From Escherichia phage CBA6, in the sequence record KM389302.1: 25,398 nucleotides of DNA; one strand, 5' to 3'. The notes under the pieces are model-generated. The model worked only from the letters and a program-made list of their open reading frames with translations, made no database searches and was not told the origin of the DNA. The position numbers and the translations under genes are program-made. Numbering within the stretch: position 1 is the first letter of the stretch; each line of letters opens with the position of its first letter. Below, one piece after another: positions 20-25,273 of the stretch.

Positions 20-2152
20 TCAGTTCCAGATGGAGTGTCTCCCCACGACTAAACCACCAAATGGGAATACTTGTTGTGACTCAGTCGAAGACATTCTATT
101 TCTCATGTCTTGGGAAATACTGGTAGAAGTCAGATCACTGAACCATTCTTGTTTAACTGCCCAAGAATATAATACCAACGGCATAACGCAGTCGTCGTGA
201 CATCCATCATCTGCTTCATAACGCGCACCACGGAACACGAATGTGCTGAGTTCATCTATCGTGTCTTGATCTTCAATCACCAACATTTCTTTCTCAATAA
301 GCGCTTTCAGGTTAGCACAACCAATAGATCGCACTTTCCTGTTGGTGTTAATGCCTGGCTCTGGTTTACGACCACCAATCCGTTTCCCTGTCCCTTTGTT
401 ATCCGTCGACGTGAATATGATCTCTGGATACTCAATTTCTTGATACAAGATCGTGATAACCTGACCACCAACGTCGTTATTCGTCTCGACAAGGACAGGG
501 CATTCCCCGTATTCAGTACACATATCAGCTATCGTGTATGCATACATCATCGGAGGTATTGTATTGTTCCTGTACTTGGCCGCTATGACATGCGGGTATT
601 CCGTTATATCTAGAATTGTCAGAACCGAATAATCTCCTTCAACACCTTTCCCCGTATCTGCGATCCCGAAGTAGATGCGTTGCGGGTCATATTCCTTGTA
701 AATTTTGGTGAACTCATTAGGCTCTCGATATAACTTGGATGTCATTTTATCCAAGCATTTGGCTGGTATCAATGAACCTACAGAACCACGGAACTTGATT
801 CCAAATTCCTGGTCAAAACGGGCATCCCCCAGACGAGCGCGTTGTTTGGTTTCCCAATCAGGGTCTTTGGTGTACGCCGGAACCTTGTACCAAGGGACTT
901 CGGTAAGATGGAAATCGTTGTATTGTGGATGGCGCGGGTCTGCTTTGGTGACGATATCATAGAACAACCCTCGCTGGCCTTTCGGAGTACTGGTCAGAAT
1001 ACAACGTGAAGTATCGGCAGATGCGATCGCTGGGAATGTTGACTCCCAAAATTCAAAGTCATTTTCGATGAACGCGACTTCGTCCACGTACAAGAGAGAT
1101 ACAGAACGACCACGAATAGAGTCCGAAGACGTTGCATAAGCATATATCTTAGAGCCGTTCTCAAATTCTATCAGTGTAGAACCAAACTTCTCACAACCCT
1201 GCTGAAGGAAGAATGGGAGGTCCTGATACGCTTTCCTGATACGATCAAGAATTTCAATCGCTTGTTTCTCTTTGTTTGCCAGTACCGCGATTTCTTTGTC
1301 TGAGTGGAACATCGCATACCAAAGAAGAAACGCAGCCACGACCGTGGTATTATGGCTGAGGAACCCATTCGTGTAATAACGTTGATCGCTGGACTTGACT
1401 TGCAAGTCATACATGTGGTGGTACTCACCAGTCTCCCAGATCTCAGAGATGAATTCTATTCCCTCCTGGGTCATTATGGCATCTCCGGCCTCCATGTCTT
1501 TAGCAAATACTTCGCGCCCATATTCATTGAAGAACATGTGCTCATCTGCGACATGAATTGTGCGTCCGGTTTCAGTCCTGACCACGTATTCAGCGTATTC
1601 TTTCGTTTTATGAGCGGCAATAACCGGAACCCAGCCAGTGTCGGACTCAACAAAATATCGTTTCCCGAAACGGCTGTCTACAAACTTATTGTGGTTGCCA
1701 ATGGTATTCAGTGGCACAGCATGGTTCGGTCCTTCGAAGCGCTTGTGAAGCTCTTCTATGGTGAGATGCAACTCTTGTTGACTGACTGTATCATAGACAT
1801 AAACAAGAGTATCACCACGGACGCATTTACCGGACTGACGCGCCTGGACAACGGCATTGAAACGATAATCTTGAAAATCGTGAAATAATTGTTTCTGATA
1901 ATCATGCATATCGAAAAGGATAAAGCCTTTATCGATTGTCGTTATCTTGTAGTAATTGGCAGCGAAGTAATGTGCGTCCATTGAACATTCAACAAATTCG
2001 TCTTCTTGTTCATCTGTTAGCATCAACTCGACTCGTGGAGCGCGCACAGAAGGCTTGCGCATGAACGTCTGGTCCATACGCAATTTCACGTCGTCGATTT
2101 TAAACCCCGTTTTTATCGGAGCATATTCTATATCACGCTTCTGATACGCCAT
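20..2152 (-). CDS. terL: Terminase large subunit (T4 gp17-like ATPase/nuclease), interrupted in frame by a mini-intein
   Basis: 710-aa ORF. Walker A reads QARQSGK-[intein]-TTVVAAF, Walker B-like LLYVDEVAF, and LTSTPKGQRGLFYDIV resembles the T4 gp17 TTTPNG region. Start overlaps the end of the upstream small-subunit gene. Confidence 0.9.
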   Translation of the reverse strand: MAYQKRDIEYAPIKTGFKIDDVKLRMDQTFMRKPSVRAPRVELMLTDEQEDEFVECSMDAHYFAANYYKITTIDKGFILFDMHDYQKQLFHDFQDYRFNAVVQARQSGKCVRGDTLVYVYDTVSQQELHLTIEELHKRFEGPNHAVPLNTIGNHNKFVDSRFGKRYFVESDTGWVPVIAAHKTKEYAEYVVRTETGRTIHVADEHMFFNEYGREVFAKDMEAGDAIMTQEGIEFISEIWETGEYHHMYDLQVKSSDQRYYTNGFLSHNTTVVAAFLLWYAMFHSDKEIAVLANKEKQAIEILDRIRKAYQDLPFFLQQGCEKFGSTLIEFENGSKIYAYATSSDSIRGRSVSLLYVDEVAFIENDFEFWESTFPAIASADTSRCILTSTPKGQRGLFYDIVTKADPRHPQYNDFHLTEVPWYKVPAYTKDPDWETKQRARLGDARFDQEFGIKFRGSVGSLIPAKCLDKMTSKLYREPNEFTKIYKEYDPQRIYFGIADTGKGVEGDYSVLTILDITEYPHVIAAKYRNNTIPPMMYAYTIADMCTEYGECPVLVETNNDVGGQVITILYQEIEYPEIIFTSTDNKGTGKRIGGRKPEPGINTNRKVRSIGCANLKALIEKEMLVIEDQDTIDELSTFVFRGARYEADDGCHDDCVMPLVLYSWAVKQEWFSDLTSTSISQDMRNRMSSTESQQVFPFGGLVVGRHSIWN
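1349..1825 (-). other. Mini-intein (159 aa, Hint domain only) inserted in the terminase P-loop
   Basis: Insert begins with Cys straight after GK (codon tgc at 1823-1825 on the minus strand) and ends with His-Asn followed by Thr (codons checked at 1346-1354). C-terminal YDLQVKSSDQRYYTNGFLSHN matches intein blocks F/G. Removing it restores GKT. Too short to hold a homing endonuclease domain. Confidence 0.8.
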
Positions 2153-4181: not shown

Positions 4182-4188
4182 TATTTAG
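4182..4188 (-). promoter_or_regulatory. Candidate late promoter element CTAAATA (variant of T4 TATAAATA) upstream of the gp14-like gene
   Basis: Minus strand reads tgaCTAAATAcc 23 nt upstream of the ATG at 4158. The same heptamer recurs upstream of five other late genes. Confidence 0.4.
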
Positions 4189-4219
4189 TCAATCATTAAT
4201 TCTTTTGAGGAATTGATAA

Positions 4220-4432: not shown

Positions 4433-4437
4433 AAAGA

Positions 4438-4457
4438 AAGGCGGGTTATCCCGCCTT
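4438..4457. terminator. Bidirectional intrinsic terminator between convergent genes
   Basis: aaggcggg-ttat-cccgcctt, 8-bp GC-rich stem. On the minus strand it is followed by a U-rich tract (uucuuuuuau), directly after the gp13-like stop at 4461. Confidence 0.6.
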
Positions 4458-4460
4458 CTC

Positions 4461-5213: not shown

Positions 5214-5541
5214 TGTTATTCCCTCGTTGCTGCAAATCAGATACAGTAATCCGCAATGTGCGGACATCGTCTGATAGGCTGCTGCTATTGAGTTTTAACT
5301 CAGCCATATTTTGTTTGACATATGCGAGGTCTGTATTCATGATCGCCATGCGCTCACTCATGTCATTCACTTTTTGAAGGACCTGATCCATTTTATTAGA
5401 ATCTCGCTCCAATACATTCACGCGTGTTTCCATCCCACCCATAAACCAAAGGAACGACGCCGCCGAGACCAATGCAGAAGCCACGACAGCAGTCAAGATA
5501 CCACGGATATCAAGCCCAGATCTTTCAGCTTGCGTCGCCAT
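5200..5541 (-). CDS. Small protein with one N-terminal transmembrane helix and a coiled-coil C-terminal region
   Basis: 113 aa. Hydrophobic stretch ILTAVVASALVSAASFLWFMGG, then heptad-like charged sequence. Strong AGGAGG Shine-Dalgarno 5 nt upstream of the ATG. Overlaps the gp13-like start by 14 nt. Confidence 0.55.
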   Translation of the reverse strand: MATQAERSGLDIRGILTAVVASALVSAASFLWFMGGMETRVNVLERDSNKMDQVLQKVNDMSERMAIMNTDLAYVKQNMAELKLNSSSLSDDVRTLRITVSDLQQRGNNNGRQ

Positions 5542-5773
5542 TCTGACCTCCTTCGGGGATTTCTATCCCCAACTTTTCGGCCATCATTTTGATCGTCGCC
5601 TCCAGATTCGATATCTGGTTTGATTGTTCAACAATGGTGGCTTCACGGGTTTCGTTGCGTTGACGGGCTTGCAATGCAGCCATACCTGCAGCATGATCAG
5701 TACAAATGATCGCGCCTGGACAAGAACTGCTTCTCAACATGGATGCGTGCCCCTGTACTTTCATTCCACGCAT
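5525..5773 (-). CDS. Hypothetical small protein (82 aa from the internal ATG)
   Basis: The listed ORF start at 5812 is GTG with no Shine-Dalgarno. The ATG at 5773 (MRGMKVQ...) has GAGGA 6 nt upstream. Its end overlaps the next gene by 17 nt, suggesting translational coupling. Confidence 0.4.
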   Translation of the reverse strand: MRGMKVQGHASMLRSSSCPGAIICTDHAAGMAALQARQRNETREATIVEQSNQISNLEATIKMMAEKLGIEIPEGGQNGDAS

Positions 5774-5825
5774 ATCTTTATCCTCTATTGGTTTGGTGGG
5801 CTTTACGCCCACCTTTCAACATTAT

Positions 5826-10664: not shown

Positions 10665-10696
10665 TTTGATGCTCCATCGAGTGCCATTTATAGAGA

Positions 10697-10703
10697 TATT
10701 TAG
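10697..10703 (-). promoter_or_regulatory. Candidate late promoter element CTAAATA (with adjacent TATAAAT) upstream of the 1612-aa gene
   Basis: Minus strand reads tataCTAAATAtctcTATAAATggcactcgatggagcatcaaaATG. Confidence 0.4.
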
Positions 10704-10725
10704 TATACAGCCAACAGACAGATAG

Positions 10726-10750
10726 AAATAAAAACCCCGCCGAAGCGGGG
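10726..10750 (-). terminator. Intrinsic terminator with a UUCG tetraloop, downstream of the 653-aa tailspike gene
   Basis: Minus-strand RNA folds as ccccgc-uucg-gcgggg followed by uuuuuauuu. Confidence 0.65.
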
Positions 10751-10757
10751 GATTTCA

Positions 10758-12719
10758 TCAACCGATTGTGAGATTAAATTCCATTTCTGTTACGACTGCA
10801 GATGGATTGTATAACGTAATTGTCCACGAAAAATCGTTAGTTTTCGAAATGACACAATATCTTCCTGTGCCTGGGGAACTAAAAGATGCCGCTAATTTAT
10901 TCATGCTTGTAAATGAATTTATCACCCAAACACCAGGAGATGTCTTCGTTACCGAACAATTAACTGCACTCGTCAGAGCACCAGAACCATTTACAATCAC
11001 TGATATTGGTTCGTCCAGAATTCTAACCACTCCGGAGTTTAATGAATATGAATTCATAACAGTTCCAATACGATTTCCCTGTAAATATGTGATGGCAGTA
11101 GAAGCCAGTCCCGTTCTATTCAACAATACATTTGTAACTCCCAAACCAGTACAACCCAATATTTGTGTGTCAGACACTAATCCAGACGTGGTGCTGGTTT
11201 GTTCACAAACCGCGTCCACAACATTACTACCGTTGTAACAATTGAAAGATACATTTATCAATTTATTTCGTCGTATTGATTTGCCTGCATTAGATTGTAT
11301 CTGTAATACACGGTTATATTGGCCAGGTGTATTAATCTGCACAAAACAATTTTGAATAACATTGTCATAACTATCAGTTAATGAAACGTTATGGTCAGAA
11401 ATACCGAAAGCAGATTTATAATCTCCATTATTGTTCATTTGAATAAAAACACCTTCAACGGTGTTATTGCTACAACCTTGTATTGCTATGACGTGGTCAT
11501 TCCCGTTAAATGCTCCTGCGGAAATAGAAACAAATTTACCACCAATGATTTTGCAGCCAGAACAACCTCTGGAAAATTTGATATTATTGTTGCCGCCAAC
11601 GACACCACCGACGTCGCCCAAATTAGCAGAACTCATTATTCCTTCACAATTTATGAATTGGAAATCTGTGGTTGGGAATCCAACACCATCTGCTGACGTC
11701 CCATGGAAATTAATCAATAACCCATTTTCCGCATAACCTTCAGATACATAGCCACCTTTACAACCCAGAACCTCCATATTCCCGCCAGCTTGAGAAACTC
11801 CAACGAATCTCGGATATGTGATTTCTGGGTACAATGCACCTATAATAACAAGGTTCCCGTGATTTGGTCCTTTAAAACCTGTATTTTCAAATACACATTT
11901 GTTAGACCTAACCCCAACACGCCGAGAATTATCAGTTGAACCATAAGATGTGTTCCCCAATCTTAATGGGGTTACTGTTGCTGTGGTTGTCGTGAAGACT
12001 ACACCCGAAACTTCAGTATAATTTCCTGTTAATTCGATAGCCCCTTTATTCGTGTCAAACGAATTCCCCAACAAATTGATTTTGTTTCCGTTGCCAATGA
12101 TGCGTTTACTGTCTAAATTGTTCACCACGTTGCTCGACAACCCAACATCTATATCTAAAATGATCGTATTATACACATTTAGAAGATCATTCAATATATT
12201 TGAAACGTCTTCGCCAGAAGAAACCCAATTAGATATGTATGTTTCTTTCTCGCCAATATTATTTTTTACAAAAATCCAAGCTGAACCAGAAATACCACCA
12301 GTATTTTCCAACTTTTGGGTAGAGGGAACAATTTTTGGAAGAGACCCACCCCAACGATAAAAACAATTATTATGGCGTATCATTTCATTCTTAGTACGGA
12401 TTGTAAACCCATCTGAAAACTCTTCCGTCATTTCGATAAATTCGCCGCGCAATACAGCCAGCGCACCCAAATCTACAGTGCCTCCGGAGTGCGTGAGGAT
12501 GCCGTCGACTAAACTAGTGACCGTTACAGCACCAATGTTAGAAGGAAGAGCATAGGCACGTTGGGTCACCTTATCGTAGATCACTTTATAACCAGACAAG
12601 GACTGCCCTGATTTCGCATAAACGACTTCCGACTTTTTACACCCAAATTTACGAGCAATACTGTCTTTGTTCGATTCTTTTGAAGTAGAACCTTTTGGTT
12701 GAGCAAATTGCGGATTCAT
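10758..12719 (-). CDS. Tailspike protein, putative polysaccharide depolymerase (653 aa)
   Basis: N-terminal module (ARKFGCKKSEVVYA...YKVIYDKVTQRAY...YRWGGSLPK) is shared with the other tailspikes. The rest is N/G/S/T-rich with short repeats typical of a parallel beta-helix. AGGAG Shine-Dalgarno. Confidence 0.7.
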   Translation of the reverse strand: MNPQFAQPKGSTSKESNKDSIARKFGCKKSEVVYAKSGQSLSGYKVIYDKVTQRAYALPSNIGAVTVTSLVDGILTHSGGTVDLGALAVLRGEFIEMTEEFSDGFTIRTKNEMIRHNNCFYRWGGSLPKIVPSTQKLENTGGISGSAWIFVKNNIGEKETYISNWVSSGEDVSNILNDLLNVYNTIILDIDVGLSSNVVNNLDSKRIIGNGNKINLLGNSFDTNKGAIELTGNYTEVSGVVFTTTTATVTPLRLGNTSYGSTDNSRRVGVRSNKCVFENTGFKGPNHGNLVIIGALYPEITYPRFVGVSQAGGNMEVLGCKGGYVSEGYAENGLLINFHGTSADGVGFPTTDFQFINCEGIMSSANLGDVGGVVGGNNNIKFSRGCSGCKIIGGKFVSISAGAFNGNDHVIAIQGCSNNTVEGVFIQMNNNGDYKSAFGISDHNVSLTDSYDNVIQNCFVQINTPGQYNRVLQIQSNAGKSIRRNKLINVSFNCYNGSNVVDAVCEQTSTTSGLVSDTQILGCTGLGVTNVLLNRTGLASTAITYLQGNRIGTVMNSYSLNSGVVRILDEPISVIVNGSGALTSAVNCSVTKTSPGVWVINSFTSMNKLAASFSSPGTGRYCVISKTNDFSWTITLYNPSAVVTEMEFNLTIG

Positions 12720-12750
12720 AATAAGAATCTCCTGTTTTTCTCTAGTAAAT

Positions 12751-12767
12751 ACCCTCCGAAGAGGGGT
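12751..12767 (-). terminator. Hairpin with a UUCG tetraloop between the 926-aa and 653-aa genes; possible attenuator or weak terminator
   Basis: Minus-strand RNA folds as accccuc-uucg-gagggu, followed by only a weak U tract. Confidence 0.35.
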
Positions 12768-12773
12768 ATATTT

Positions 12774-15554
12774 TTAAATAGAAGAATCCAATATACGGTA
12801 ACTAATTAACTTATTAGGGTCTACAGGATTAATCAGGTTGTAGTACCGTGAAGCTACATAATCATTCTCAGAAGAGAACATACCAACATACACTTTAGCA
12901 CCTACACCAGAACAGGCATCCCCACCAGCATTGCTATCCGAGAAGAATGTTAATGAAGAAGTTAATCCGAATATAGAATTAAATGGTACAGCTAAATAAG
13001 CGCCTCGGAATGACCGTCTGATTCTCTTACCCGTCTGAATATTAAGAATACTCCACCAGAAATATCCAGGTTTAGCACCAATAGCTATATGATATGGCAC
13101 ACCACTTTGTAGTTTAAGGTCGTTAGGTAAATCCCCAGATAAAATTTGGGTTGTACCATCGCCCCCCAATAGCAAAGCAATTGTTTGTTTTCCGGAAGCG
13201 TCTATAACTAATTGAAGATGAAGACTGTTGGATGTATCACTAAACCCTGAACCAATGGCCATGAAGTTAAATACTTCAGCTCCAGATATGGTAGGTACTA
13301 CAACAGCAGCCATGGTAATACCTTCTGGACCTGCTGTTCTTGAGTACAGTAATTTATCTTTGTTGGCTTGTGATAGTCTCAGACCATTTACTTGCCCTAC
13401 AGAAGATGGGACACTTACATAAACAGGTGTAGTGCTAACACCATCAAATGTAGGGGTCTCGTTCATGGTTTGCAAACCAGTCTTGGAATAATTAACCAAT
13501 CCGTTAATGCTCAGGTCGGAATTTGTGGGGTTGATAATATTGTTATCACCAATAAAGTTAATGCCCATATAACCAGTCTCAACCACACCATTAATGGTGA
13601 CGCTGCAATCATTAGACAGGAACTGAAAATTGCCCGCACTAGAGTTAGCACCTGAACCACTATTCGCGGCATAATTGAGTCCTACGAATCCGTTGATAAC
13701 TGCATCACTTTTGTTAAATACGATGTTGTAGAAAGTGTTGTTAGCGTTGATGCCGTTACGATTGGTGTTCAATCCGTTCATGGAAATTGAATATGAATCG
13801 CTAATCTCAATGCCATTCCCGCCACAATCTTGTACCTCAATACCATTAATAACCATATTCTGGCTATTATTAATAGTAATGCCTGGGAACTGTCCTACTG
13901 TACCATAAGGTTGCCAGTTAGCCCAAATGAATTTACCACCAATAATACGACCATTACCACAACCATCAAGAACCAGACATTGTTTACCGCAGGTATTAAC
14001 CTGGATATTTGTCCAAGTCCAATCAGTAGTAGCACAACGGACGCCCACCTGATTGATGTGGTTGACTAAAAGAGAATCTGTAGTAACACTAAAGTTACCA
14101 CTATCAATATTTAACCCATATTCATCAAAACCTGCTATATGGACCTTAGAAATACACAAGTCGCGTCTTGGGTCTGCGGTAGTGTGGAACGGATAATCAG
14201 CTGAGAGACCTGAAGGAGTTTCTATATAGATACCTGTTGTACCCGCAGTAAATGATGTGCCTTGTTGTGCACCTGTGCCATATACCCCAAAGGAGTCTAA
14301 TACAATAAGGGAGCATGTATCTTTTATGGTAATACAATTCCCAGTAGCAGAAGGCAACTGATGCAACCTGGAGTAATGTAATCCAGACCCATAAATAGAC
14401 GACGTATTATATTTTAACCGGATATTGCTAACGTAATGTACACCAGTTAATTGTGTGGCCTTACCACTGTCCACACAAGATTGTACTGGAATAGTATCAT
14501 CATTAGAACCGCCCAAAGCACCAAACATGAATGGGTTAACTCTATCAGCATTAACACGTAACCAGGCTGCGCCTCCAACAGTTTTGATCACAGTGCCGTT
14601 ATCATCAGTCTTTCCTGTACCATCAATTAACGCACGGAATACCCCTCCACCAAGAAGAGTACCCGCAGTGTGTTGCTTAAGAATAATGCGTTGTCCATCC
14701 ATAGTGGGTTCAGTATTCCTGAGATCAGCAACAGAATGGCATTCTCCGATATACTTGGCACCATCATTGCGCCCCAGAGTGTTTATCACATTAATAAATG
14801 AATCTTCTAAAGGCAACAAATCCACTACAACATTACCTGGATTATAAGTAAGTTGCCCATTACTAACAGAAGAAATCACTGAACCATCAGGGATAGTTGG
14901 TAAACCATAAATAATCTGCGCCGCTGAATCATAAACAACTTTCTTGTCGTCGAGTAAAGATATGGTATCAGTGCTGACAATGACTTCAGAGTCTTTTACG
15001 TTAGCCGAACGGGCAATTTCTTGGATACTGCGATCGAACGCCGGACTGATGTTCGGTTGTTTAACAGACATCTCCGCAACAACCCACACCCCTGCAGTCA
15101 GCGCAGTTTGTAAGGAAACTTTCCCAGTCGTACTGTTGTATGAATATTCTATATCAGGAGTTTTGTACTCACCACCGATATAAAGAGACTGGACACCATA
15201 AGAAGTAAAGTCAGGCGTGAATTCAGTTTCTCCACCCACGGCTTGAAATTTGTATATTCGAATACCTTTAGAAGTATCTTCTGGTGAAAGAATTTTATCG
15301 AATAAGCAATACACAACATCGCCTTTGGACAATGCGCGCCCGAGATTCAACGTATTCCCGTCTATCTCGAAGTTGTCTAACGGAACTTGCATGCCGCCGT
15401 TAATTGTGATAACACCAGTGACAGGATAGAAAGGTAGAGAAAAGAAAGTTTCTCCACCGACACTTGATTTATAAGTGAAAGGAATCTGGTGGGGAGCTGT
15501 GACTACGCCGCCGAATAATTCTTCTACATTTCTGGTCATTTGAAAATACCCCAT
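12774..15554 (-). CDS. Tailspike protein with a T7 gp17-like N-terminal anchor domain and beta-helix body (926 aa)
   Basis: N-terminus IPFTYKSSVGGETFFSLPFYPVTGVITINGGMQVPLDNFEIDGNTLNLG fits the pattern of podovirus tail-fibre N-terminal anchors. Central region has tandem NG-rich beta-helix coils. The start may instead be the second ATG at 15539 (MTRNVEE...). Confidence 0.7.
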   Translation of the reverse strand: MGYFQMTRNVEELFGGVVTAPHQIPFTYKSSVGGETFFSLPFYPVTGVITINGGMQVPLDNFEIDGNTLNLGRALSKGDVVYCLFDKILSPEDTSKGIRIYKFQAVGGETEFTPDFTSYGVQSLYIGGEYKTPDIEYSYNSTTGKVSLQTALTAGVWVVAEMSVKQPNISPAFDRSIQEIARSANVKDSEVIVSTDTISLLDDKKVVYDSAAQIIYGLPTIPDGSVISSVSNGQLTYNPGNVVVDLLPLEDSFINVINTLGRNDGAKYIGECHSVADLRNTEPTMDGQRIILKQHTAGTLLGGGVFRALIDGTGKTDDNGTVIKTVGGAAWLRVNADRVNPFMFGALGGSNDDTIPVQSCVDSGKATQLTGVHYVSNIRLKYNTSSIYGSGLHYSRLHQLPSATGNCITIKDTCSLIVLDSFGVYGTGAQQGTSFTAGTTGIYIETPSGLSADYPFHTTADPRRDLCISKVHIAGFDEYGLNIDSGNFSVTTDSLLVNHINQVGVRCATTDWTWTNIQVNTCGKQCLVLDGCGNGRIIGGKFIWANWQPYGTVGQFPGITINNSQNMVINGIEVQDCGGNGIEISDSYSISMNGLNTNRNGINANNTFYNIVFNKSDAVINGFVGLNYAANSGSGANSSAGNFQFLSNDCSVTINGVVETGYMGINFIGDNNIINPTNSDLSINGLVNYSKTGLQTMNETPTFDGVSTTPVYVSVPSSVGQVNGLRLSQANKDKLLYSRTAGPEGITMAAVVVPTISGAEVFNFMAIGSGFSDTSNSLHLQLVIDASGKQTIALLLGGDGTTQILSGDLPNDLKLQSGVPYHIAIGAKPGYFWWSILNIQTGKRIRRSFRGAYLAVPFNSIFGLTSSLTFFSDSNAGGDACSGVGAKVYVGMFSSENDYVASRYYNLINPVDPNKLISYRILDSSI

Positions 15555-15640
15555 AAAGGATTTGCCAATATGGGGTATTTAGTCTGAACTAATAAAATTT
15601 TATGAACAAAGGTATGATAAAAACCCCGCCGAAGCGGGGT
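15548..15640. repeat. About 90-bp intergenic cassette, copy A
   Basis: Near-identical to 17678-17770. Contains a palindrome (aaatacccca / tggggtattt), the CTAAATA motif, and the UUCG-loop terminator. Confidence 0.8.
15576..15582 (-). promoter_or_regulatory. Candidate late promoter element CTAAATA upstream of the 926-aa tailspike gene
   Basis: Minus strand reads cagaCTAAATAcccc, 21-36 nt upstream of the candidate ATGs. Confidence 0.4.
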
Positions 15641-15647
15641 TTTTATC
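15616..15647 (-). terminator. Intrinsic terminator with a UUCG tetraloop, downstream of the 675-aa tailspike gene
   Basis: Minus-strand RNA folds as ccccgc-uucg-gcgggg followed by uuuuauc. Confidence 0.65.
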
Positions 15648-17673
15648 AATCGGCCGTTTTGATTGGTGAATACAGCCCGCCTCCGCGATGAATCCATGCA
15701 TAAACGTTATCTGTAGTTGGGGTTATCGCCGAACTCCGATAGAACATAAAACCAACAGGAGCACCGCTATAGTTAGGCATGGCATTATGTTTGCCTTTCG
15801 CTTTGTCCCACCCGCAAAACGTTGGCATTGGCGTTGCATGATATGCTGACGCATACACGCCGCCTATAGCAATCGACTTACCAGAATTTGTAGTAATCAT
15901 AATACGAGATGCTTTTGTTCTATCAACAGGTGCTGAAATTTTGTATAATCTCCAGCCATTTCCCATGTCGTAGAACTTAGTAGGATCACCGTAAATAGAA
16001 CCCTGTCCATCTGCCGATTGAATGTAAATGGAGTTAGGCTCACCACGCACAAACAGGGCGGCTCGAACGAAACCTGTAGCTGAACGAAGGCAGTTGATAG
16101 CAAAGTATACTTGTTCCGATACGCTTTCGTACCCTACATATCTACCGCATCCTGAAGGCTCATTTGCATCGGTTCCAAAAACCAAACCAGAATTAAGCCC
16201 ATTGAAGTCTACAGGATATCCGTTATTGTTAATAACACTCCAGTCACCACTTTGGCAAAGGTTTGAACCGCTCATGGATATAAAGTCACCACCCTGCATT
16301 CCAGCAGTATGGTCACTGAACATCGCGTGGTTCATATAGTGCATTGAACTTGCCATCATGCCGAATTGGCAACGATAACCGACAATGGACCACGGACCGC
16401 GGATTTTACCGTTTCCGTTTACTTCGCCATATAGACCAATGACGGTGTTATGCTGCGCAGGTACAGACACGTTGTCTAGAACATACCCCGCCGAACCACT
16501 AGCGTCCAGACCGACGAATGTGTTCGCATTACCTTCAGTATTACCACCTTCTGGAACCCATGTATGAGAACCTTTAATAAGAACTGAACCCACACATTGG
16601 GTGTATACGTTTTGATTACAAGACCCGGAAGATATATCAATAATAATTTGCCCGCCACCGGATGTGGTTCCAGCACGAATACGCGTGAAGTTATTCCAGT
16701 AACTACCACCGCGCCAAGGAATTAAGCCTGTAGGCGTAGTTTCTATACCGCCTTTTAACGTGAAGTTTGCCGAGCAATCTATGTTAGATATGTTATGAAA
16801 TTGTGCACCTTGAACTAACATATTACGACAGCTAATACCCTGTATGTCCAAAGAACGCGCATGAAGTATTAAAAAATCCGCATCAGGGATAATACCAAGA
16901 CACTCCACATTACAACGAACAATAAATTGTGCGTAATAAGCGTGATAGCCGGACAAATTGGCTATTGAAGTTTTGTAAATTCCTTTTGGTATGAATAACT
17001 TTCTTCGGTTTTTACCATACTCAACGAGAGCATTATAATCACTGTTAATCGCATCCAGAGCGGCACAAATAGCTGCTGTGTCATCCGTGACCCCATCCCC
17101 TACGGCACCCCATCCTCGAATGTCACCTTCATCACGCCAGCGAGCCATCTGCAATTCTGGGTAAAGAGTGGCTCCACTTGGATTAGTAATCTGGCTTCTT
17201 AATGACGCATCACCAACACTAACCCATGCACCTAAATCAACGCCGCCTGAGTTATCGGGTGTAGAACCAGCGGCAACTACCTTTGGCAAAGAACCATCCC
17301 ATCGATATTTTTCATCATCGTGAACAAGAAGTTCATTTTTCACATTAATGGTATGGCCGAAATTAAAAGAACCAGGTAAAGTCACATATTCTTCGCGGCT
17401 TACTGCTAATTCCCCAAGGTCTACAGAACCAGCGGAATGAGTGAGGATAGCTCTTTCATCCAGACTAATTGCAGTTGTCCCTGAAACAATACCGGAAGGG
17501 AGAGAATAAGCCCGTTGGGTAGACTCATCATAAATTACTTTAAATCCACTGAGATCAATACCGACAGTGAAATAAACGACTTCGTCTTCTTTGACACCGA
17601 AATTTCGAGCGATAGATTGTTTGTTAACTTCTATGGAAGTAGAGCCGCGTGGTTGATTGAATTGAGAAATCAT
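15646..17673 (-). CDS. Tailspike protein, putative depolymerase of the pectate-lyase-like beta-helix type (675 aa)
   Basis: Shared N-terminal attachment module (ARNFGVKEDEVVYF...FKVIYDESTQRAY...YRWDGSLPK). GWGAVGDGVTDDTAAICAAL matches the hallmark N-terminal motif of pectate-lyase-superfamily beta-helix enzymes. Confidence 0.75.
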   Translation of the reverse strand: MISQFNQPRGSTSIEVNKQSIARNFGVKEDEVVYFTVGIDLSGFKVIYDESTQRAYSLPSGIVSGTTAISLDERAILTHSAGSVDLGELAVSREEYVTLPGSFNFGHTINVKNELLVHDDEKYRWDGSLPKVVAAGSTPDNSGGVDLGAWVSVGDASLRSQITNPSGATLYPELQMARWRDEGDIRGWGAVGDGVTDDTAAICAALDAINSDYNALVEYGKNRRKLFIPKGIYKTSIANLSGYHAYYAQFIVRCNVECLGIIPDADFLILHARSLDIQGISCRNMLVQGAQFHNISNIDCSANFTLKGGIETTPTGLIPWRGGSYWNNFTRIRAGTTSGGGQIIIDISSGSCNQNVYTQCVGSVLIKGSHTWVPEGGNTEGNANTFVGLDASGSAGYVLDNVSVPAQHNTVIGLYGEVNGNGKIRGPWSIVGYRCQFGMMASSMHYMNHAMFSDHTAGMQGGDFISMSGSNLCQSGDWSVINNNGYPVDFNGLNSGLVFGTDANEPSGCGRYVGYESVSEQVYFAINCLRSATGFVRAALFVRGEPNSIYIQSADGQGSIYGDPTKFYDMGNGWRLYKISAPVDRTKASRIMITTNSGKSIAIGGVYASAYHATPMPTFCGWDKAKGKHNAMPNYSGAPVGFMFYRSSAITPTTDNVYAWIHRGGGLYSPIKTAD

Positions 17674-17706
17674 GATAATGCCCCATAAAGGATGACCAAT
17701 ATGGGG

Positions 17707-17713
17707 TATTTAG
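17707..17713 (-). promoter_or_regulatory. Candidate late promoter element CTAAATA upstream of the 675-aa tailspike gene
   Basis: Minus strand reads cagaCTAAATAcccc, 33 nt upstream of the ATG at 17673. Confidence 0.4.
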
Positions 17714-17745
17714 TCTGAACTAATAAAATTTATGAACAAAGGTAT

Positions 17746-17770
17746 GATAAAAACCCCGCCGAAGCGGGGT
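17746..17770 (-). terminator. UUCG-tetraloop hairpin, third copy of the conserved terminator
   Basis: Same ccccgc-cgaa-gcgggg sequence as at 10735-10750 and 15624-15639. Confidence 0.55.
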
Positions 17771-17776
17771 TAATGA

Positions 17777-17929
17777 GAAGCGCATGAACAAGAATATCGC
17801 GCAGAAAAGTCAGGTAAGCGCATAAAGGAACTCGAAGCGGAGAACGCCAGACTACGGCAGCAACTGGACGCGGCGAACGCGCAACTGTATTTTATTCTGG
17901 AGAATCTTAAGACGCAGCAGGTGGATTAA
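17777..17929 (+). other. Start-less 51-codon open frame encoding a coiled-coil-like peptide; possible gene remnant or acquired fragment
   Basis: Frame reads EAHEQEYRAEKSGKRIKELEAENARLRQQLDAANAQLYFILENLKTQQVD and ends at TAA 17927-17929. There is no in-frame ATG/GTG/TTG after the upstream TGA. The segment looks GC-richer than flanking phage DNA and is followed by a strong terminator. Confidence 0.3.
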
Positions 17930-17933
17930 GGAA

Positions 17934-17964
17934 AAGGCCCCGTAAGGGGCCTTAGTTTTATTTT
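17934..17964. terminator. Strong bidirectional intrinsic terminator
   Basis: aaggcccc-gtaa-ggggcctt followed by agttttatttt on the plus strand. It also lies just downstream of the minus-strand core tailspike stop at 17958. Confidence 0.7.
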
Positions 17965-20900
17965 GTACTAACGAAATCAAATTCGTGAAGAGCCATTGAA
18001 CCTGATGATATTCTTGCATCTAGTAAGGTGCCATCAATGGAAATTAACTTTTTATTCGCAATTGTTCCTATAAGAACACCATTACTAAAAAACTGAACTA
18101 TACCAGGTCCTTTACCGTTGTATTTAGCGGTTAAAGCGCCCTTCATTGGAGCTGAAGGTAAAGCAATGACGGTCTCTACTCCAGCAACGGATATAACACC
18201 ACGTATATCACTCCCTGTATTAAATCTGAATCCGAAATAGTTTCCTGATTCGAAACTTCCGGAATGTAATAGTCCTCCTGGTATGTTTTGCATGCTCCAT
18301 GCGATACTAAAGGCGCGGTAGTTGTTTGTCTCAAACTCATACGTTAATCGATGTTTTCTTGTTACACGATACCGACAAGTTCCACCAGAACTTGCTGCTT
18401 GCATATATAACCCATCATCCTCGAAATAAGTAAATGTGTCCGCAGGCTGAACTGTTGTTTTAGTGAATTTATCATGGTCCTGGAAAAGTGTATGGTAATG
18501 CGTTATGTCGTGGCGAGCGAATGCGTTCACACCCATGATTGTTTTAGATGCTTGTTCTATAATAAAACCAGCCATAACGCCATCAGAATACATTTGCGCT
18601 TTTTGACCAATAACAGGATGAAAATCATTCGCGATAATAGCCCCACCAATCGGCAGCGCGACATATTCGGTTAGCACCCCAGATGCTGGTGGTAGATTAT
18701 CAAGTTGGGTGCTGTTATAGTTAATAATACCGCCGTGTTTTGTTACTAATCCTGCCTTATTTATCGCGTTTCCAAATTGCGGCGATTCAACGCTTATTGT
18801 ACTGTTGTAAGCCTCAATGCATTTATCGACGCCTACGCCGTTGAATGATGGTTGAAATACGCCACCGCTGGTGCAGCCATAAAATTCAATGGATGCGTTT
18901 TCGTCAGAATGCGTGCGCCCCTTGAAGTTAATCTGTTCAATAGATGGTGAATATGGGGTTCCGCCACAGTTGAACAGTTGAATAGAGTTAAGGCTAACTT
19001 TGCTTGGGTCTGCTGACCTGCTCCCAATTTTTATTCCGGCTTGCTGGCTTGAACTAGGAGGGAACAATGGCGTACACCCACGCTTACTGCGAACAACGAC
19101 ATCCTCAGGAGTACCGGTGTTGCCGTAATTATCTGCAATACTAATTACAATTCGCTGCCAGTAATTGTTTGGAATGGCATCAACGGCATCTTGTACAGTG
19201 GGGTAATCTTCCGGAACCATGAGTGTTACAGGCATCGTGTAAATACCTGGCACTGTTGACGAGTTAACACCAAATGGGTGAATGTAACCACGATACGGAT
19301 CATTACCTCCGATAGTATTGATAAACCCTTCGATGCGCACTTTTGATGTATCAGTGTACAGATATCCACACTCGCCAATATCTACGCGGAACTTCGCAGG
19401 GATAGTCAGATCTTCTGTAAATTTCACTGGAACATTGACAAAAACACGACCATTACCAGAAGCTATGGCGCGTTTGAAAGCCTGCGTGTAGTCTGGTGCC
19501 GCTGGGTCTCCTGGCTCAACAAATGCGCGAAGGTCATAAAGTCTTTCCTGCTGACCGCCAGGGATTAAAAAACCTTTATCTCCTGTTAATTCAGTTCTTA
19601 ATGATGCATCACCAACGCTAACCCATGCACCTAAACCAACGCCGCCAGTTGTTGTCGGAGTTGAGCCAGGAGCCACAGTTTTAGGAAGTGTCCCATCCCA
19701 ACGATACTTACCGTTCGTATGGGTGAGTAATTCATTTTTAACATTGATAACAGCACCAGAATCAAATGTCCCAGACAAGGTAACATATTCTTCACGAGAT
19801 ACAGCTAATGCGCCCAGATCAACACTACCAGCAGAATGCACAAGTACAGCCGAAGAACTAAGGCTGACTGCCGTGGTTCCAGTCGGTAGCTCTGGAATAA
19901 AATATGATCTCTGTGTTACTTTATCATAGATAACTTTATACCCGCTTAACACCGCACCAACACTAAAATAAACAACCTCTGTATCTTTAACATTGGTTAC
20001 ACGAGCCACTTCCCGCAAAGTATAATCAATTTGATTATAGATGTTTGGCGTTCCATTGATAATTACAACAACTTCATCCTCTGCATCCAGTTCTTGCGCA
20101 AGAGTGATTTTACTGGTTAATGGATCAAATGTGAACCCCAGATTTTTATACTGGCGACTTCCGTTTATATCAATGGCCGGAACATCATCGACAACGATGT
20201 CTAACGTGATTTCGGTTTCACCACCAATCGCAGAACCCCCATTATAGACCCAGGTAATCGTAGAAGAACTAGAACCACCGCCATTACCCAATTGAATAGG
20301 AGTATATTCAATCACCTGAAGTTCTGTGCTGGCTGGCAAAGAAGGACTGAAAGTGATCACATTCCCATCTAGTGAATATTTGGATTCCGCAAGACGTTTT
20401 CCGTCAGCATACACGTCCACGATTGTTGGTGGCGTATTGAGAGTGACAGCGCTTGTTTCAGACGCCAAAATTTGTGTAAAAATCTCACGACTGTAGACAC
20501 GGCCTTGGCCAAGGCCGACGCCGGATGTGACAACCCAACCTTGTTCAGGCCCAGACCAAGTGAAAGTCGCCGACACGTTATCGGTGGATATCGTCATATC
20601 TTCGGTGGAGCCGTAAAGGTTATTTCCCGCTGGAGATACAGTCAATGGGTAAGTGGCGAATTTTCCATAAGCATCACAAATAGTAACGGAATCCCCAACA
20701 CGTGTAGGGGGAGGGAGAACCACTGTAGATGCCCCTGTGGTGTTATTAATGAGATAGCCGCGACCTTCTAACAAATTGCTAGAGGGAGCGTGAGGGAGCG
20801 TTTCCCAGCGTATTCCACCGCCCCCCCAAAGACAACCAACCACCGTTTTCGTAATAACCTTCAAATTCATCGCTATCAGGATTGTAACGTACAGAAGATG

Positions 20901-21051
20901 GAAGACCTGCAACTTCAGTATCTTCAGGGAATGTCATTACGGCACCAGGGGAATGCTCAATAGTGCCGGAGTTGTTGAAGCCTTTTATGTTCGAAGACTC
21001 AGAAGTTTCTAAACCCAAAGGGAAAAGAGGCTGTGTTGGTTTGTTAGCCAT
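17958..21051 (-). CDS. Core tailspike with a T4 gp10-like N-terminal baseplate-attachment domain; reading frame broken at a G7 homopolymer (about 1030 aa if fused)
   Basis: The 90-aa ORF (20779-21051) has a native-looking N-terminus (...VRYNPDSDEFEGYYENGGWLSLGG). After a one-base frame change at the tract it continues into the 984-aa ORF (GGIRWETLP...GRGYLINNTTGASTVVLPP...). The nominal N-terminus of the 984-aa ORF has no ribosome-binding site. Downstream are T7 gp17-like modules, a complete copy of the shared tailspike attachment module, and a beta-helix body. Confidence 0.65.
20821..20827. repeat. G7 (plus-strand C7) homopolymer tract at the frame junction of the core tailspike gene
   Basis: Minus strand reads TTG GGG GGG CGG. 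Deleting one G gives the in-frame fusion ...GGWLSLGGGGIRWETLP... Confidence 0.9.
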
Positions 21052-21088
21052 TTGTAATACCCCTAAATGTATTCATGTCATCTAGGGG

Positions 21089-21095
21089 TATTTAG
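21089..21095 (-). promoter_or_regulatory. Candidate late promoter element CTAAATA upstream of the gp10-like core tailspike gene
   Basis: Minus strand reads aaaaCTAAATAcccctagatgacatgaatacatttaggggtattacaaATG, with a tacccct(a) / (t)aggggta palindrome. Confidence 0.4.
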
Positions 21096-21097
21096 TT

Positions 21098-22288
21098 TTA
21101 GAAATAAGCTGCAATAGAATAATCGACAGAACAAGCGGTTGTTGTATTTGCATTAACAACGGAAATTCTCAATTTGCCACCCACCACAGACCCTGTGAAC
21201 GTCACTGTACCGCTCGTACTTTTCTGAACCAACAACTCTGATTTGATCGTTCCGTCACGAGTTATGGTTACTCGATATGTGTCAACAACGTTACCTGTCC
21301 CCCATTGCGCAGTTACCAGTATTTGACAAAGGTTTACCAAATCAAAATCTGGAAGAGCCGTCGTTCCCGAAGCCGAAACCGTGTATGACGACAAATTCGT
21401 TTTGGTACGATAAACTGCGTTCCCTAAACTGTTATCAATTGTGGTCATTTTGGCATTATACGTTGATACATCGACCTTACCAGTCGTGAGAGAACTGATA
21501 CTGCCGTCCAAGGAAGTCATCTTCGTATTATATGTGCTGACCTCGACTTTATTACCCAGAGACGTGTTGATATTGGAGATACTCAAATCCAACGACGCCA
21601 TCTTAGTGTTGTAAGTTGAGGTGTTGACTTTCCCGTTCAACGACGTGTTGATGTTATTAATCTGGGACTCTAGACTCAGCATATCTGCGTCATACGCTGT
21701 CGTTGTCACATATCCATTAAATCGGTTGTCTGCAAACAACGCATCAAAAAATGCAGTCATTGTCCAATAACGCGCTCCAGAATCTGTCTGTACAGGAACT
21801 GAAGTCGGCAACGTTGGTCCGGTATACGCAGACAATCTGGTGAAATCCAAATTGAATTTGTAATATCCGGATGTCAACAACTCCCCAGCCAAACCAGAAC
21901 CAGGCGGGGTAGTGTCTTCACTGACGCCATGCTTTCTCAACATGCTCAGGTTAACACCATCTGTCGAGTTCGTTGGTTCATCTGTGATTGAAACGGATTT
22001 TCCAGCGGGGACTTGTATGCCCCCATTGGTCACCAACAAAGCATTGAAAGTCTTTTTGCCATTGATTGTTTGTTCACCACTATCTGTCCGAATAACTTTG
22101 TTGGCCAGAGTATCATTGATTGTGTCAACAGATCTTTTCAACTCATATGTCAGACGAGCAGATGGTGGAAACAACGGGTCGTTAACTTCAAAATCGTTAA
22201 TAACGTCATTTTTACTTACTTTGTCATCAACAGAACCCAATATCTGATCTATCTGCTGACCTGTATATTGACTCAGGAAATCGGCCAT
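21098..22288 (-). CDS. Fibrous protein with tandem ~24-residue repeats (fibritin- or tail-fibre-like)
   Basis: 396 aa. Repeats STYNTKMASLDLSISNINTSLGNKVEV / STYNTKMTSLDGSISSLTTGKVDV / STYNAKMTTIDNSLGNAVYRT (about nt 21390-21680). TINGKKTF...GGIQVP is a tail-fibre-like motif. AAGGAG Shine-Dalgarno. Confidence 0.6.
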   Translation of the reverse strand: MADFLSQYTGQQIDQILGSVDDKVSKNDVINDFEVNDPLFPPSARLTYELKRSVDTINDTLANKVIRTDSGEQTINGKKTFNALLVTNGGIQVPAGKSVSITDEPTNSTDGVNLSMLRKHGVSEDTTPPGSGLAGELLTSGYYKFNLDFTRLSAYTGPTLPTSVPVQTDSGARYWTMTAFFDALFADNRFNGYVTTTAYDADMLSLESQINNINTSLNGKVNTSTYNTKMASLDLSISNINTSLGNKVEVSTYNTKMTSLDGSISSLTTGKVDVSTYNAKMTTIDNSLGNAVYRTKTNLSSYTVSASGTTALPDFDLVNLCQILVTAQWGTGNVVDTYRVTITRDGTIKSELLVQKSTSGTVTFTGSVVGGKLRISVVNANTTTACSVDYSIAAYF

Positions 22289-22290
22289 TT

Positions 22291-23145
22291 TTAGCTCCTT
22301 GTGCTTTCTAGGAATACAGTAAATCCAGCAGGATGGAAATGCTGACGGAAGACGCGCTCAAACACACCTTCAAAATCAGATACGTCGCCTGGGACTCCTA
22401 TAACATAAGTGTATTCATCATAATAGTAATCATCACGCATCCCTGTCGTGCCGTCACATTCAAAATTTCCGTCCAGACCGCCTATGTCTTCTTTCGTAAA
22501 ATAGACGCTGACTGGACAACCGAAATATATCCAAAAGAACAATTCAATCGCTTTCTTTGTTCCACGTATTTTATAGATGTGTTTCAACAATTTCAGCCAA
22601 CGCGGATGATCCAGAGTTCTTCGTTTAGTTCCTTCGATATAAACAGAGAACGTATCGCCCGTGGCCGTCAATAAAGAATCCGAACCGACTGGGATAAAAT
22701 GTCCAAATTCTTGAAATGATTTATCGACAGTTCGTTGAAACCCAAAATCATTATACCAGTCGTCTATCTGCTTGTTCTTGTCTTCAATAGAAAGCAACGG
22801 CCTTCCATCAGCGTCTAGCAGCGTCTCGGCATCAAGAGCCATCATGTTCTCAAATGTTCTGACCAAAAATTTATCTGACAAATAATCTTTGGCTTCAGAG
22901 CCTGGCGTTTTGTCGGCCTTTAAATCTATGAGTTGTTTAACAGGAGAATCTTCACTCTCAGGATTCATCCAACTCGAAGTGTCTGCCAGATATGCCAAAA
23001 TTTCTTCTTGAGTGAAGCCCTGCTGCCGATACAGCCAATTAAAGAACGTGTCCATGAACTCGATGAACAGAGGAAAATCGTTTTGGTAAAACAACGGGGT
23101 TTCATACTTAACCCCATTGTGACCATTATTAAGATCTTTGGACAT
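22291..23145 (-). CDS. Hypothetical baseplate-associated protein (284 aa from the ATG at 23145)
   Basis: Located between the gp6-like and fibrous genes. GAGG Shine-Dalgarno 8 nt upstream of the ATG at 23145. Start overlaps the gp6-like end by 17 nt. Confidence 0.5.
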   Translation of the reverse strand: MSKDLNNGHNGVKYETPLFYQNDFPLFIEFMDTFFNWLYRQQGFTQEEILAYLADTSSWMNPESEDSPVKQLIDLKADKTPGSEAKDYLSDKFLVRTFENMMALDAETLLDADGRPLLSIEDKNKQIDDWYNDFGFQRTVDKSFQEFGHFIPVGSDSLLTATGDTFSVYIEGTKRRTLDHPRWLKLLKHIYKIRGTKKAIELFFWIYFGCPVSVYFTKEDIGGLDGNFECDGTTGMRDDYYYDEYTYVIGVPGDVSDFEGVFERVFRQHFHPAGFTVFLESTRS

Positions 23146-24910
23146 AGCGCACCTCTGGCGTAACAACCACATCACCGATTTTGAATACCTGGTTTTGTGA
23201 AGCCTGTATATTCTGATTCAGGCCATCTGGTAGCACAACGATCGTTACTCCTTCAGTATTATAGTTTGAAACCGTAATCTGCTGAAGATCTACGACGCCG
23301 TTGGCGTAATCCACAACACCAGTCTTTTGAACCAAAAATTCTTTAGTGGTGTCGTTGTTGTTCACTTTATACATGTTCAAATCGCCATTGTCATCGCGCA
23401 TATAATAAGTGAAATCAACTTCGGCCGGAAGCGGTTTAAACCCTGTTATTTTCACAGAACCAGGTTTAATGCTTCTCCCATAACTGAAAGTAAAGCTATC
23501 CAACACACCATAATCAGGTTTGAAATGACGTTTATAACCGACAGACGTGATATTTGAGTTAATGGAACGTTCCATTTTCGTAATTGCTTCCTGCAATATC
23601 TCTTTGTCGAATAACTGATCAAAACCACCGAGATTGTTTTCACCCCATTTGGTGATACTATTACCCACCACCACTTTCATTTGTTCTTCAACATAAACCG
23701 TTGAAGTCGGATCCCAAAATATAGTCGTGGCGACTTGGATATATGTGATCTCAGAATCTACCACTTTGGGGGTGATGGACCCAACGTTGTATTTGTCCAA
23801 CGCGGCAACGATATCAGCCTTCTCTGCGTCTGAAAGAGTCTCCCCAACAGATGGTATCACAGCGATATAAACGTAACCAGAATCCGGAGGGGAAAGCGTA
23901 TCACCCCCATATGATTTAGCACGGGCAACGTTAGAAAACAAGCGTTCAGTTAAAACACCGTAATCGGTTTCCGTAACGGCAGCGCCATCAGCCTGATAAG
24001 CCAAAGGTGCCAGACGCTTCGTATCTTCAATAGATTCCGGATCTCCCCCACCCGCACTGCGTTCGGAAACCAATTCTATATCAACCTGGTTAAACCCGCC
24101 TATCGAAGATGCGGAAGATAAACTAGTGATGTCATTACCTTCAGCGCCAGAAGTTTCTAAATACTGGAGGAAAATAACGTTGCCATCTTCTACTCGGCGA
24201 GACAGATAACCATCTCCGAACTCAAACACATACAGGCCATCTATCCCTAATTCCACAAAATAGAGATATGCATATTGATTCAGGTCGAACGGACTGTTGT
24301 ATCTCTGGTATGTCGTTGAAACATCAGAGGACTCTGATTCCTGTACCTGTACGACCAGATGATTGATATCAACATTTTCCGAAGGTATCGTATAAGTCGA
24401 AATCGCGCTTCCTTCAACATCATATGTCTTGTACAACCAGTTACCCTGAATCAGTTTCACGTTGTTGAACATGTAATAACCGTCTGTTGTCAACGTGGCG
24501 GACACGGGTTTTTCAACAGTAAAGTTGTAGGAACTCCCATCCTTCGCCCCAACGAACATCACACGGCGGTCCATAATGATCTCATTAGGAGCTGTACTGG
24601 CGTCATACGGCGTTACTTTGATGTTGGCATACATGTATGCCGCCCGATAGTTGTCGGGGGTATAAGAAAGAAAAGCAGCAGACAAACCAACATTAGAACG
24701 TTGATTTGCTGTTTTTAAATGGCCTTCACCATTAAGCATGTTCTGCATAAAGGCTATGGCGTTCGCATCAGATGCCAACAAACGAATAATAGCACTAAGA
24801 CCGGAACCTTCAAAGTCATAATCTTTAAAGGTGGGATCAGCTTTCATTCGCTGTTTGATAATGTACTCAAAGGCTCTGACGTCGAGTGAAGGAACTGTTT
24901 GCGTGGCCAT
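23129..24910 (-). CDS. Baseplate wedge protein (gp6-like)
   Basis: DYDFEGSGLSAIIRLL and GGGDPESIEDTKRLAP resemble recalled T4 gp6 motifs. The listed ORF start at 24961 is TTG; the ATG at 24910 has GGAG 7 nt upstream. Confidence 0.65.
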   Translation of the reverse strand: MATQTVPSLDVRAFEYIIKQRMKADPTFKDYDFEGSGLSAIIRLLASDANAIAFMQNMLNGEGHLKTANQRSNVGLSAAFLSYTPDNYRAAYMYANIKVTPYDASTAPNEIIMDRRVMFVGAKDGSSYNFTVEKPVSATLTTDGYYMFNNVKLIQGNWLYKTYDVEGSAISTYTIPSENVDINHLVVQVQESESSDVSTTYQRYNSPFDLNQYAYLYFVELGIDGLYVFEFGDGYLSRRVEDGNVIFLQYLETSGAEGNDITSLSSASSIGGFNQVDIELVSERSAGGGDPESIEDTKRLAPLAYQADGAAVTETDYGVLTERLFSNVARAKSYGGDTLSPPDSGYVYIAVIPSVGETLSDAEKADIVAALDKYNVGSITPKVVDSEITYIQVATTIFWDPTSTVYVEEQMKVVVGNSITKWGENNLGGFDQLFDKEILQEAITKMERSINSNITSVGYKRHFKPDYGVLDSFTFSYGRSIKPGSVKITGFKPLPAEVDFTYYMRDDNGDLNMYKVNNNDTTKEFLVQKTGVVDYANGVVDLQQITVSNYNTEGVTIVVLPDGLNQNIQASQNQVFKIGDVVVTPEVRYVQRS

Positions 24911-24950
24911 GATAATCTCCATCACCTGAGTTTGAATATGGTGTTGAAGA

Positions 24951-24957
24951 TATTTAG
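24951..24957 (-). promoter_or_regulatory. Candidate late promoter element CTAAATA upstream of the gp6-like gene
   Basis: Minus strand reads ctttggCTAAATAtcttc, about 40 nt upstream of the ATG at 24910. Confidence 0.35.
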
Positions 24958-25273
24958 CCAAAGGGAATCAAAACGCTCTCGCGCGTTAATTTATTCGAAT
25001 ATACTCGCGAGGGGGCTGACGCCCTCGCTCGTAACACCGCCTTGACAGGCAGTCCCATTCCGCAGCCATGGAGGCTGCTTCTCGTTGTTCGTTAACACTC
25101 ACAACTCGAAGGGCACCGCGTTAAGATACAGTTTCTTGATGTTGTAGAAAAGTAGTTTTTACCTATTAATAATCGCTGTCATTATTTTATTGGCCTTTCT
25201 TGGGGTTATATTCAATAAACATATTCCCAATATAATAGTGGGGACATTTAATTAATTTGACGAGGCTCAGGAA

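Follow-up and report, generated by a model that had tools for sequence, protein, structure and literature searches.

The closest described system is tailspike protein 4 (TSP4) of phage CBA120, whose N-terminal region (TSP4-N) comprises four parts: a baseplate anchor domain (AD; approximately the first 80 residues) and the domains XD1, XD2, and XD3 (Chao et al., PMC8825819). All three XD domains are T4 gp10-like, with XD2 docking TSP2 and XD3 docking TSP1 (PMC8825819), and a second study agrees that the XD domains serve as docking sites for the other tailspikes (PMC11414711). The AD of TSP4 holds the whole tailspike complex on the baseplate (PMC8825819), and the mounting of TSP1-3 depends, in the CBA120 model, on both the AD and the XD domains (PMC8825819, PMC11414711). 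The window analyzed here, a 25,398-nt sequence of Escherichia phage CBA6 (KM389302.1), represents a Kuttervirus structural module. At the DNA level it is most similar to Salmonella and Escherichia phages, among them vB_Sen_ST2, Sa157lw, STML-13-1, and CBA120. Read along the minus strand, it carries a gp6-like baseplate wedge gene, a gene of 284-294 aa, a gene of 396 aa, and a split tsp4 gene, followed by three tailspike genes (675, 926, and 653 aa), a VriC-like gene of 1612 aa, neck genes, and terminase genes. This order matches that of CBA120 from orf217 to orf198. In both phages tsp4 is the first member of a four-gene tailspike cluster and lies downstream of the baseplate wedge genes; in CBA6 it comes after the gp6-like wedge gene and the 396-aa gene. 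According to the list of open reading frames, the other three tailspike genes of the CBA6 sequence are intact.

Direct reading of the sequence confirmed the original prediction that tsp4 is split by a run of seven Gs (G7) at 20821-20827 of the minus strand (C7 on the plus strand), in the minus-strand context ...GGTTGGTTGTCTTTGGGGGGGCGGTGGAATACG.... Among the mononucleotide runs of the whole window it is the longest; only 16.5% of the bases fall in runs of at least three, and the only other C or G run of at least six is a C6 at 13162-13167. Both the 90-aa ORF that had been described as running into the tract and the continuation of ~950 residues in the adjacent frame appear in the list of reading frames. 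As deposited, tsp4 has no single continuous reading frame, and a six-G run (G6) brings the frame back. With one G deleted, the corrected translation gives a single uninterrupted ORF, predicted to be ~1030 aa and exactly 1030 aa long, whose junction reads GGWLSLGGGGIRWE. No further lesion besides G7 was found in the corrected translation of the 3.1-kb gene. At the protein level the frame is lost at residues 76-79, where the anchor domain reaches its C-terminal end. The gene call in the public record starts at residue 110, downstream of the frameshift, and yields a product of 921 aa. The features of the split gene, and two further runs that bear on its interpretation, are as follows.

17958..21051, minus strand: tsp4 as deposited, 3094 nt with one extra base; 1030 aa with G6 (ORFs, corrected translation, match to 7REJ/7RFO, synteny with tail spike 4/orf213)
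20821..20827, minus strand: G7 frameshift site; here relatives and the second assembly (Logan, see below) carry either G6 or interrupted Gly codons that add up to the same length
20779..21051, minus strand: 90-aa ORF with an ATG start; native TSP4 over residues 1-77, which make up most of the anchor domain, and out of frame for the last 13 residues before the stop
17958..20912, minus strand: 984-aa mechanical ORF that opens with TTG in the adjacent frame; the first ~29 residues are out of frame, and from GGGGIRWE onward it has native TSP4 residues 76-1030
20846..20849, minus strand: A4 run (T4 on the plus strand), 22 nt upstream of the G tract; A4 in the CBA6 sequence and relatives, A3 in Logan, where it causes a different frameshift
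41..44, minus strand: G4 run (C4 on the plus strand) in the large terminase gene; second +1 homopolymer insertion specific to the CBA6 sequence

Judged by sequence and structure alignments, the split gene is the Kuttervirus (Ackermannviridae) orthologue of TSP4, the scaffold tailspike. The original prediction had named it as the scaffold for the whole receptor-binding complex, an identification that proved correct: it is the scaffold tailspike of a branched receptor-binding complex. Residues 1-338 of the corrected protein align end to end with the CBA120 TSP4-N structures 7REJ, 7RFO, and 7RFV, with ~97% identity and E=1.4e-217 to 7REJ. This match is identical across the frameshift site, through GGWLSLGGGGIRWETL, and holds for the G6-corrected reading only. 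The in-frame reading therefore corresponds to a folded and experimentally characterized domain. Further downstream, residues 344-496 match the head domains of CBA120 TSP4 (5W6H), and a Pfam match to PF18668 covers residues 416-481 (E=1.2e-22). The resulting domain layout of the corrected protein is as follows.

20811..21051, minus strand: baseplate anchor domain (AD), ~residues 1-80 (structure alignment; limits from PMC8825819)
20046..20810, minus strand: T4 gp10-like XD1-XD3, ~residues 81-335 (~97% identical to CBA120 TSP4-N335; PMC8825819)
19608..19805, minus strand: PF18668 Tail_spike_N (TD/head), residues 416-481 (Pfam)
17961..19601, minus strand: variable C-terminal receptor-binding module, ~residues 484-1030 (alignment breakpoints, protein matches)

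Since the first ~80 residues constitute the AD and XD1-XD3 come after it, the N-terminus itself is the anchor domain and not the gp10-like domain that had been proposed; the gp10-like character belongs to the XD domains at residues ~81-335 (PMC8825819). The T7 gp17-like modules that had also been proposed found no counterpart in Pfam, even at E<=10, and PF18668 is the sole Pfam match of the corrected protein. Likewise, no Pfam beta-helix domain was detected in the C-terminal part, even at E<=10. Among 50,697 phage records, the best protein matches of the C-terminal module have ~28-34% identity and belong to Vibrio phages; one of them carries the annotation 'pectin lyase fold protein'. The ~30% identity to these Vibrio phage proteins is the single indication of a putative beta-helix.

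At the DNA level, the homology to the closest relatives ends at ~19596-19603, and the receptor-binding module has no near-DNA match in the same 50,697 phage records. The neighboring 675-aa tailspike is also mostly devoid of near-DNA matches in this collection. Compared with CBA120 TSP4 (orf213), the CBA6 protein has the AD, XD1, XD2, XD3, the head domains, and the position in the cluster in common. It differs in that its C-terminal module (~484-1030) is unrelated to that of CBA120 and in that the gene as deposited has one extra G. Modular exchange of tailspikes is ordinary for this family (PMC8432352). The divergent receptor-binding module of TSP4 and the 675-aa tailspike represent such ordinary exchange but may point to host specificities that are as yet uncharacterized.

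The comparison with homologues in related phages, which had been suggested in the original prediction, found every relative examined to be one base shorter at the tract and in frame. A 131-base query across the G tract retrieved 154 matching phage records, which were inspected in two listings that overlap, one of the 60 top-ranked rows and one of 60 rows spread along the ranking. The match span was one base shorter than the query in 60/60 of the best and in 60/60 of the spread rows, and none of the 154 records showed 100% identity to the G7 query. In the 16 relatives and assemblies whose tract was read directly, it was invariably a 12-nt stretch encoding four glycines; no other length was seen among them, and the CBA6 sequence alone has 13 nt. 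The stretch contains GGGGGC in vB_Sen_ST2, STML-13-1, and S117 and GGGGGT in CBA120 and PhaxI. In 7 of the 16 (Sa157lw, AR2819, ISTP3, KEP4, UTK0004, GEC_vB_N6, and phage 241) the Gly codons are interrupted (GGTGGTGGC, GGTGGCGGC, GGTGGTGGT, or GGCGGCGGT). As these synonymous variants break the G run and keep the four glycines, selection maintains Gly-Gly-Gly-Gly and not a slippery tract. Consistently, an exact 29-mer search of IMG/VR returned no match for the G7 version and three for the G6 version. A single CDS extends over the tract in all annotated records inspected, namely those of vB_Sen_ST2, Sa157lw, STML-13-1, AR2819, S117, barely, ISTP3, PhaxI, UTK0004, GEC_vB_N6, phage 241, and CBA120; the KEP4 record has no annotation. 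The phages FSL SP-029 and FSL SP-063 are 99.6% identical to CBA6 tsp4 over its N-terminal 500 bases; the study behind these Cornell phages, sequenced on Illumina GAIIx, contains no link to the CBA6 sequence.

A second assembly of the same phage was found in the Logan assembly of SRA run SRR547957. The protein search recovered the CBA6-specific proteins (the 675-, 926-, and 653-aa tailspikes and the 1612-aa protein) solely in this sample. Three Logan contigs were aligned to the CBA6 sequence and cover its positions 1-15594, 15612-17725, and 17742-25056, respectively. Over these ~25 kb there are no substitutions and exactly three differences, all of them single-base changes in homopolymer length:

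41-44, terminase large subunit: C4 on the plus strand of the CBA6 sequence, C3 in Logan; relatives side with Logan
20821-20827, tsp4: C7 on the plus strand of the CBA6 sequence, C6 in Logan; relatives side with Logan
20846-20849, tsp4: T4 on the plus strand of the CBA6 sequence, T3 in Logan; relatives side with the CBA6 sequence

The Logan contig over tsp4 has G6 and no substitution across 7.3 kb. A Logan protein of 956 aa, which starts with MGGGGIRWE, clusters with the 921-aa product of the public record. Thus, tsp4 is frameshifted in each of the two assemblies, at different runs 22 nt apart, and the majority calls combined give an intact gene. Because Logan contains an error of its own in tsp4 (A3 for A4), its G6 is treated as supporting evidence and not as a gold standard. 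The difference at positions 41-44 affects the large terminase subunit (TerL), a protein indispensable for packaging. Through the C4 insertion, the TerL of the CBA6 sequence diverges at residue 705 and stops at 710 aa, whereas Logan and the listed TerL proteins of relatives have the full 736 aa. At the terminase run, 60/60 of the listed relatives have one base fewer than the CBA6 sequence.

The extra G is thus unique to the CBA6 sequence among the relatives inspected, the second assembly lacks it, and the terminase gene contains a second error of the same type. In all likelihood, the seventh G is a homopolymer overcall introduced during sequencing or assembly and not a biological switch, because the second assembly and all relatives examined have G6 or the in-frame length at the tract. 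Sequencing error had been among the possibilities listed in the original prediction, and it is the one favored by the relatives, by the Logan G6, and by the second homopolymer insertion in TerL. The two insertions that are specific to this sequence, in TerL and in TSP4, are both absent from the second assembly and point to read or consensus noise. Other errors of the same kind fall in genes that are intact elsewhere (C4 versus C3 in TerL, and the reciprocal A3/A4 difference in Logan). This pattern resembles the errors of flow-based (454 or Ion Torrent type) or low-coverage sequencing in that only single-base length changes in mononucleotide runs occur, with no substitutions over ~25 kb. Further similarities are that assemblies of the same sample differ in their errors and that the frameshifts hit genes whose frame is unbroken in every relative. 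Homopolymer noise of the flow type or from low coverage is the probable technical cause. The seventh G would have arisen as an overcall, either at read level or in the consensus, and the phage genome itself would have G6 and its gene would code for one 1030-aa TSP4. The function of this protein we infer from homology with CBA120. By that analogy, the baseplate would hold the branched tailspike complex through the N-terminal anchor domain of TSP4, the other tailspikes would dock on its gp10-like XD domains, and its variable C-terminal module would bind, and probably degrade, a host polysaccharide. No switching would take place at the G tract.

The disagreement between the two assemblies, G6 versus G7, might alternatively reflect real heterogeneity. 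Replication slippage on G6 could have generated a G7 subpopulation of non-functional TSP4 mutants, and one assembler could have taken the minority or co-dominant form; this would be an incidental mutational load and not a regulated switch. A G6/G7 mixture in the sample would likewise make two assemblers disagree, and G6 is the most slippage-prone site in tsp4 because it is the longest run there. However, the same assemblies also differ at the C3/C4 run of the terminase gene and at an A3/A4 run, both of which are too short to be slippage hotspots, and each variant represents a lethal or severe frameshift. Three frameshift polymorphisms at intermediate frequency in essential virion and packaging genes are far less likely than read noise. 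Moreover, G7 was observed in no deposited relative (154 records with the listed rows inspected, and 16 tracts read). We therefore regard heterogeneity as unlikely. A more elaborate version would have G6 as a real slippage hotspot and the stock as containing a substantial G7 subpopulation with particles devoid of the tailspike complex. This stochastic bald-virion state, or a low-level rescue by +1 frameshifting, would then act as a phage-encoded throttle on receptor-binding display. Such a scenario appears very unlikely.

The original prediction also envisaged an on/off switch of host range. In this case the G tract would be maintained as a contingency locus, where slippage toggles TSP4 and with it the whole receptor-binding complex. 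The locus shares with bacterial and phage contingency loci, which undergo phase variation by strand slippage, a run in the 5' portion of a gene for a surface or receptor-binding protein where a one-base change toggles the frame. In addition, the anchor domain of TSP4, which in CBA120 holds the whole complex on the baseplate (PMC8825819), ends at the tract, so that a phage in the off state would be strongly affected in phenotype. The CBA6 tract differs from such loci in that it is not conserved, with interrupted Gly codons in 7/16 tracts, and in that isolates display no length polymorphism, G7 having no match in IMG/VR. Furthermore, by analogy with CBA120, the off state would leave every tailspike without its anchor and so abolish receptor binding instead of altering host range, and such a bald state would have no obvious selective value for a lytic phage. 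The assemblies also differ equally at runs that are not hotspots. With the extra G unique to one sequence, the second assembly at G6, and the companion insertion in TerL, phase variation is extremely improbable. If G7 were genuine, full-length TSP4 could also be produced by programmed recoding, either through +1 ribosomal frameshifting on GGG GGG C or through transcriptional slippage with the loss of one G. The geometry would allow a glycine tRNA to move from GGG to the overlapping GGG and pair again, and in the 0 frame the run is followed by CGG, which enterobacteria use infrequently. Conservation is the mark of real recoding sites, however, and neither the split-ORF arrangement nor the slippery site is conserved in any relative, all annotated relatives inspected having single CDSs. 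Recoding would also be an inefficient way to make a structural virion protein that is needed in many copies. Given in addition the G6 of the second assembly and the TerL insertion, the chance that ribosomal frameshifting or a related mechanism operates here is close to negligible. Since conservation is lacking for the tract as well as for the split arrangement, both programmed frameshifting and phase variation were rejected. Finally, the deposited frameshift could mean that the phage has lost TSP4 function and that tsp4 is a fixed pseudogene, as the original prediction had considered. Pseudogene decay was rejected because tsp4 contains no second lesion in 3.1 kb, and the long downstream frame is intact. 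In the CBA120 model TSP1-3 cannot be mounted without the AD and XD domains, and the genes of the other three tailspikes are intact in CBA6. As the extra G is confined to the CBA6 sequence and the second assembly has G6, a fixed pseudogene is exceedingly unlikely.

A homopolymer overcall in tsp4, the preferred explanation, has consequences for the use of the deposited sequence, which leads to mis-annotated products: a 921-aa tailspike without its anchor domain and a 710-aa terminase. Such truncated TSP4 and TerL products can mislead the prediction of host range from tailspike typing. If G7 were real, the anchor of the four-tailspike complex on the baseplate would, by analogy with CBA120, be lost. 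The CBA6 phage, however, almost certainly possesses an ordinary intact TSP4.

The window is a complete public contig of 25,398 bases whose end falls within the terminase gene, so the assembly from which the phage derives is fragmented. SRA run SRR547957 also contains this phage, and its Logan assembly recovers it in contigs of 2-19 kb. Next to the contig start, the terminase gene itself carries an extra base.

20-2152, minus strand: large terminase gene, extending past the window start

At 41-44 this gene reads C4 instead of C3, a difference specific to this contig, and the encoded protein, divergent from residue 705 onwards, ends at residue 710 rather than 736. The additional base is absent from the Logan assembly of SRR547957 and from the relatives (60 of 60 among the matches listed), and is probably a second homopolymer error, after the very likely G7 overcall in tsp4, the scaffold tailspike gene.

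Two further single-base length differences from four related phages lie in a repeated intergenic element.

15555-15640 and 17674-17770: repeated intergenic cassette, upstream of two tailspike genes
near 10665-10760 and 21052-21097: elements similar to the cassette

Directly ahead of the ATG start codon of the 926-aa tailspike gene, positions 15555-15557 read A3 versus A2 in the four relatives, and this looks like a genuine difference because the Logan assembly shares the A3. At 15598-15601, the plus strand reads T4, one base more than the T3 found both in the four relatives and in the paralogous copy at 17728-17730. This site is intergenic and outside every Logan contig; its extra base may be either a genuine difference or a third overcall. 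In each cassette, a GC hairpin terminator (CCCCGCTTCGGCGGGG with a T run after it) precedes ATCATACCTTTGTTCATAAA(A)TTTTATTAGTTCAGACTAAATACCCC. The motif ACTAAATACCCC, which resembles a late-promoter motif described in ViI-like phages, recurs ahead of tsp4, and a variant precedes the VriC-like gene. The breaks between the Logan contigs fall at these intergenic repeats.

The region 10758-21051 contains four tailspike genes (1030, 675, 926, and 653 aa), whereas over the same region vB_Sen_ST2, the closest overall relative in the collection, has only three annotated and lacks the gene at the TSP3 position. The spacer behind the tsp4 stop (17674-17957) is unusually long at 284 nt, of which 187 nt occur in the CBA6 phage alone. 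Two tailspike segments had no near-DNA match in the collection of 50,697 phages.

17961-19601: C-terminal module of TSP4, the tsp4 product
~15646-17196: the bulk of the 675-aa tailspike gene, lying downstream of the conserved N-terminal portion

At the protein level, the top matches of the TSP4 module in this collection were Vibrio phage proteins (~28-34% identity), one of them annotated as pectin-lyase-fold, and its nearest counterpart in a large protein database was a 701-aa protein from Logan (P0002, 71% identity). The TSP4 module and the 675-aa tailspike stretch may confer uncharacterised host specificities.
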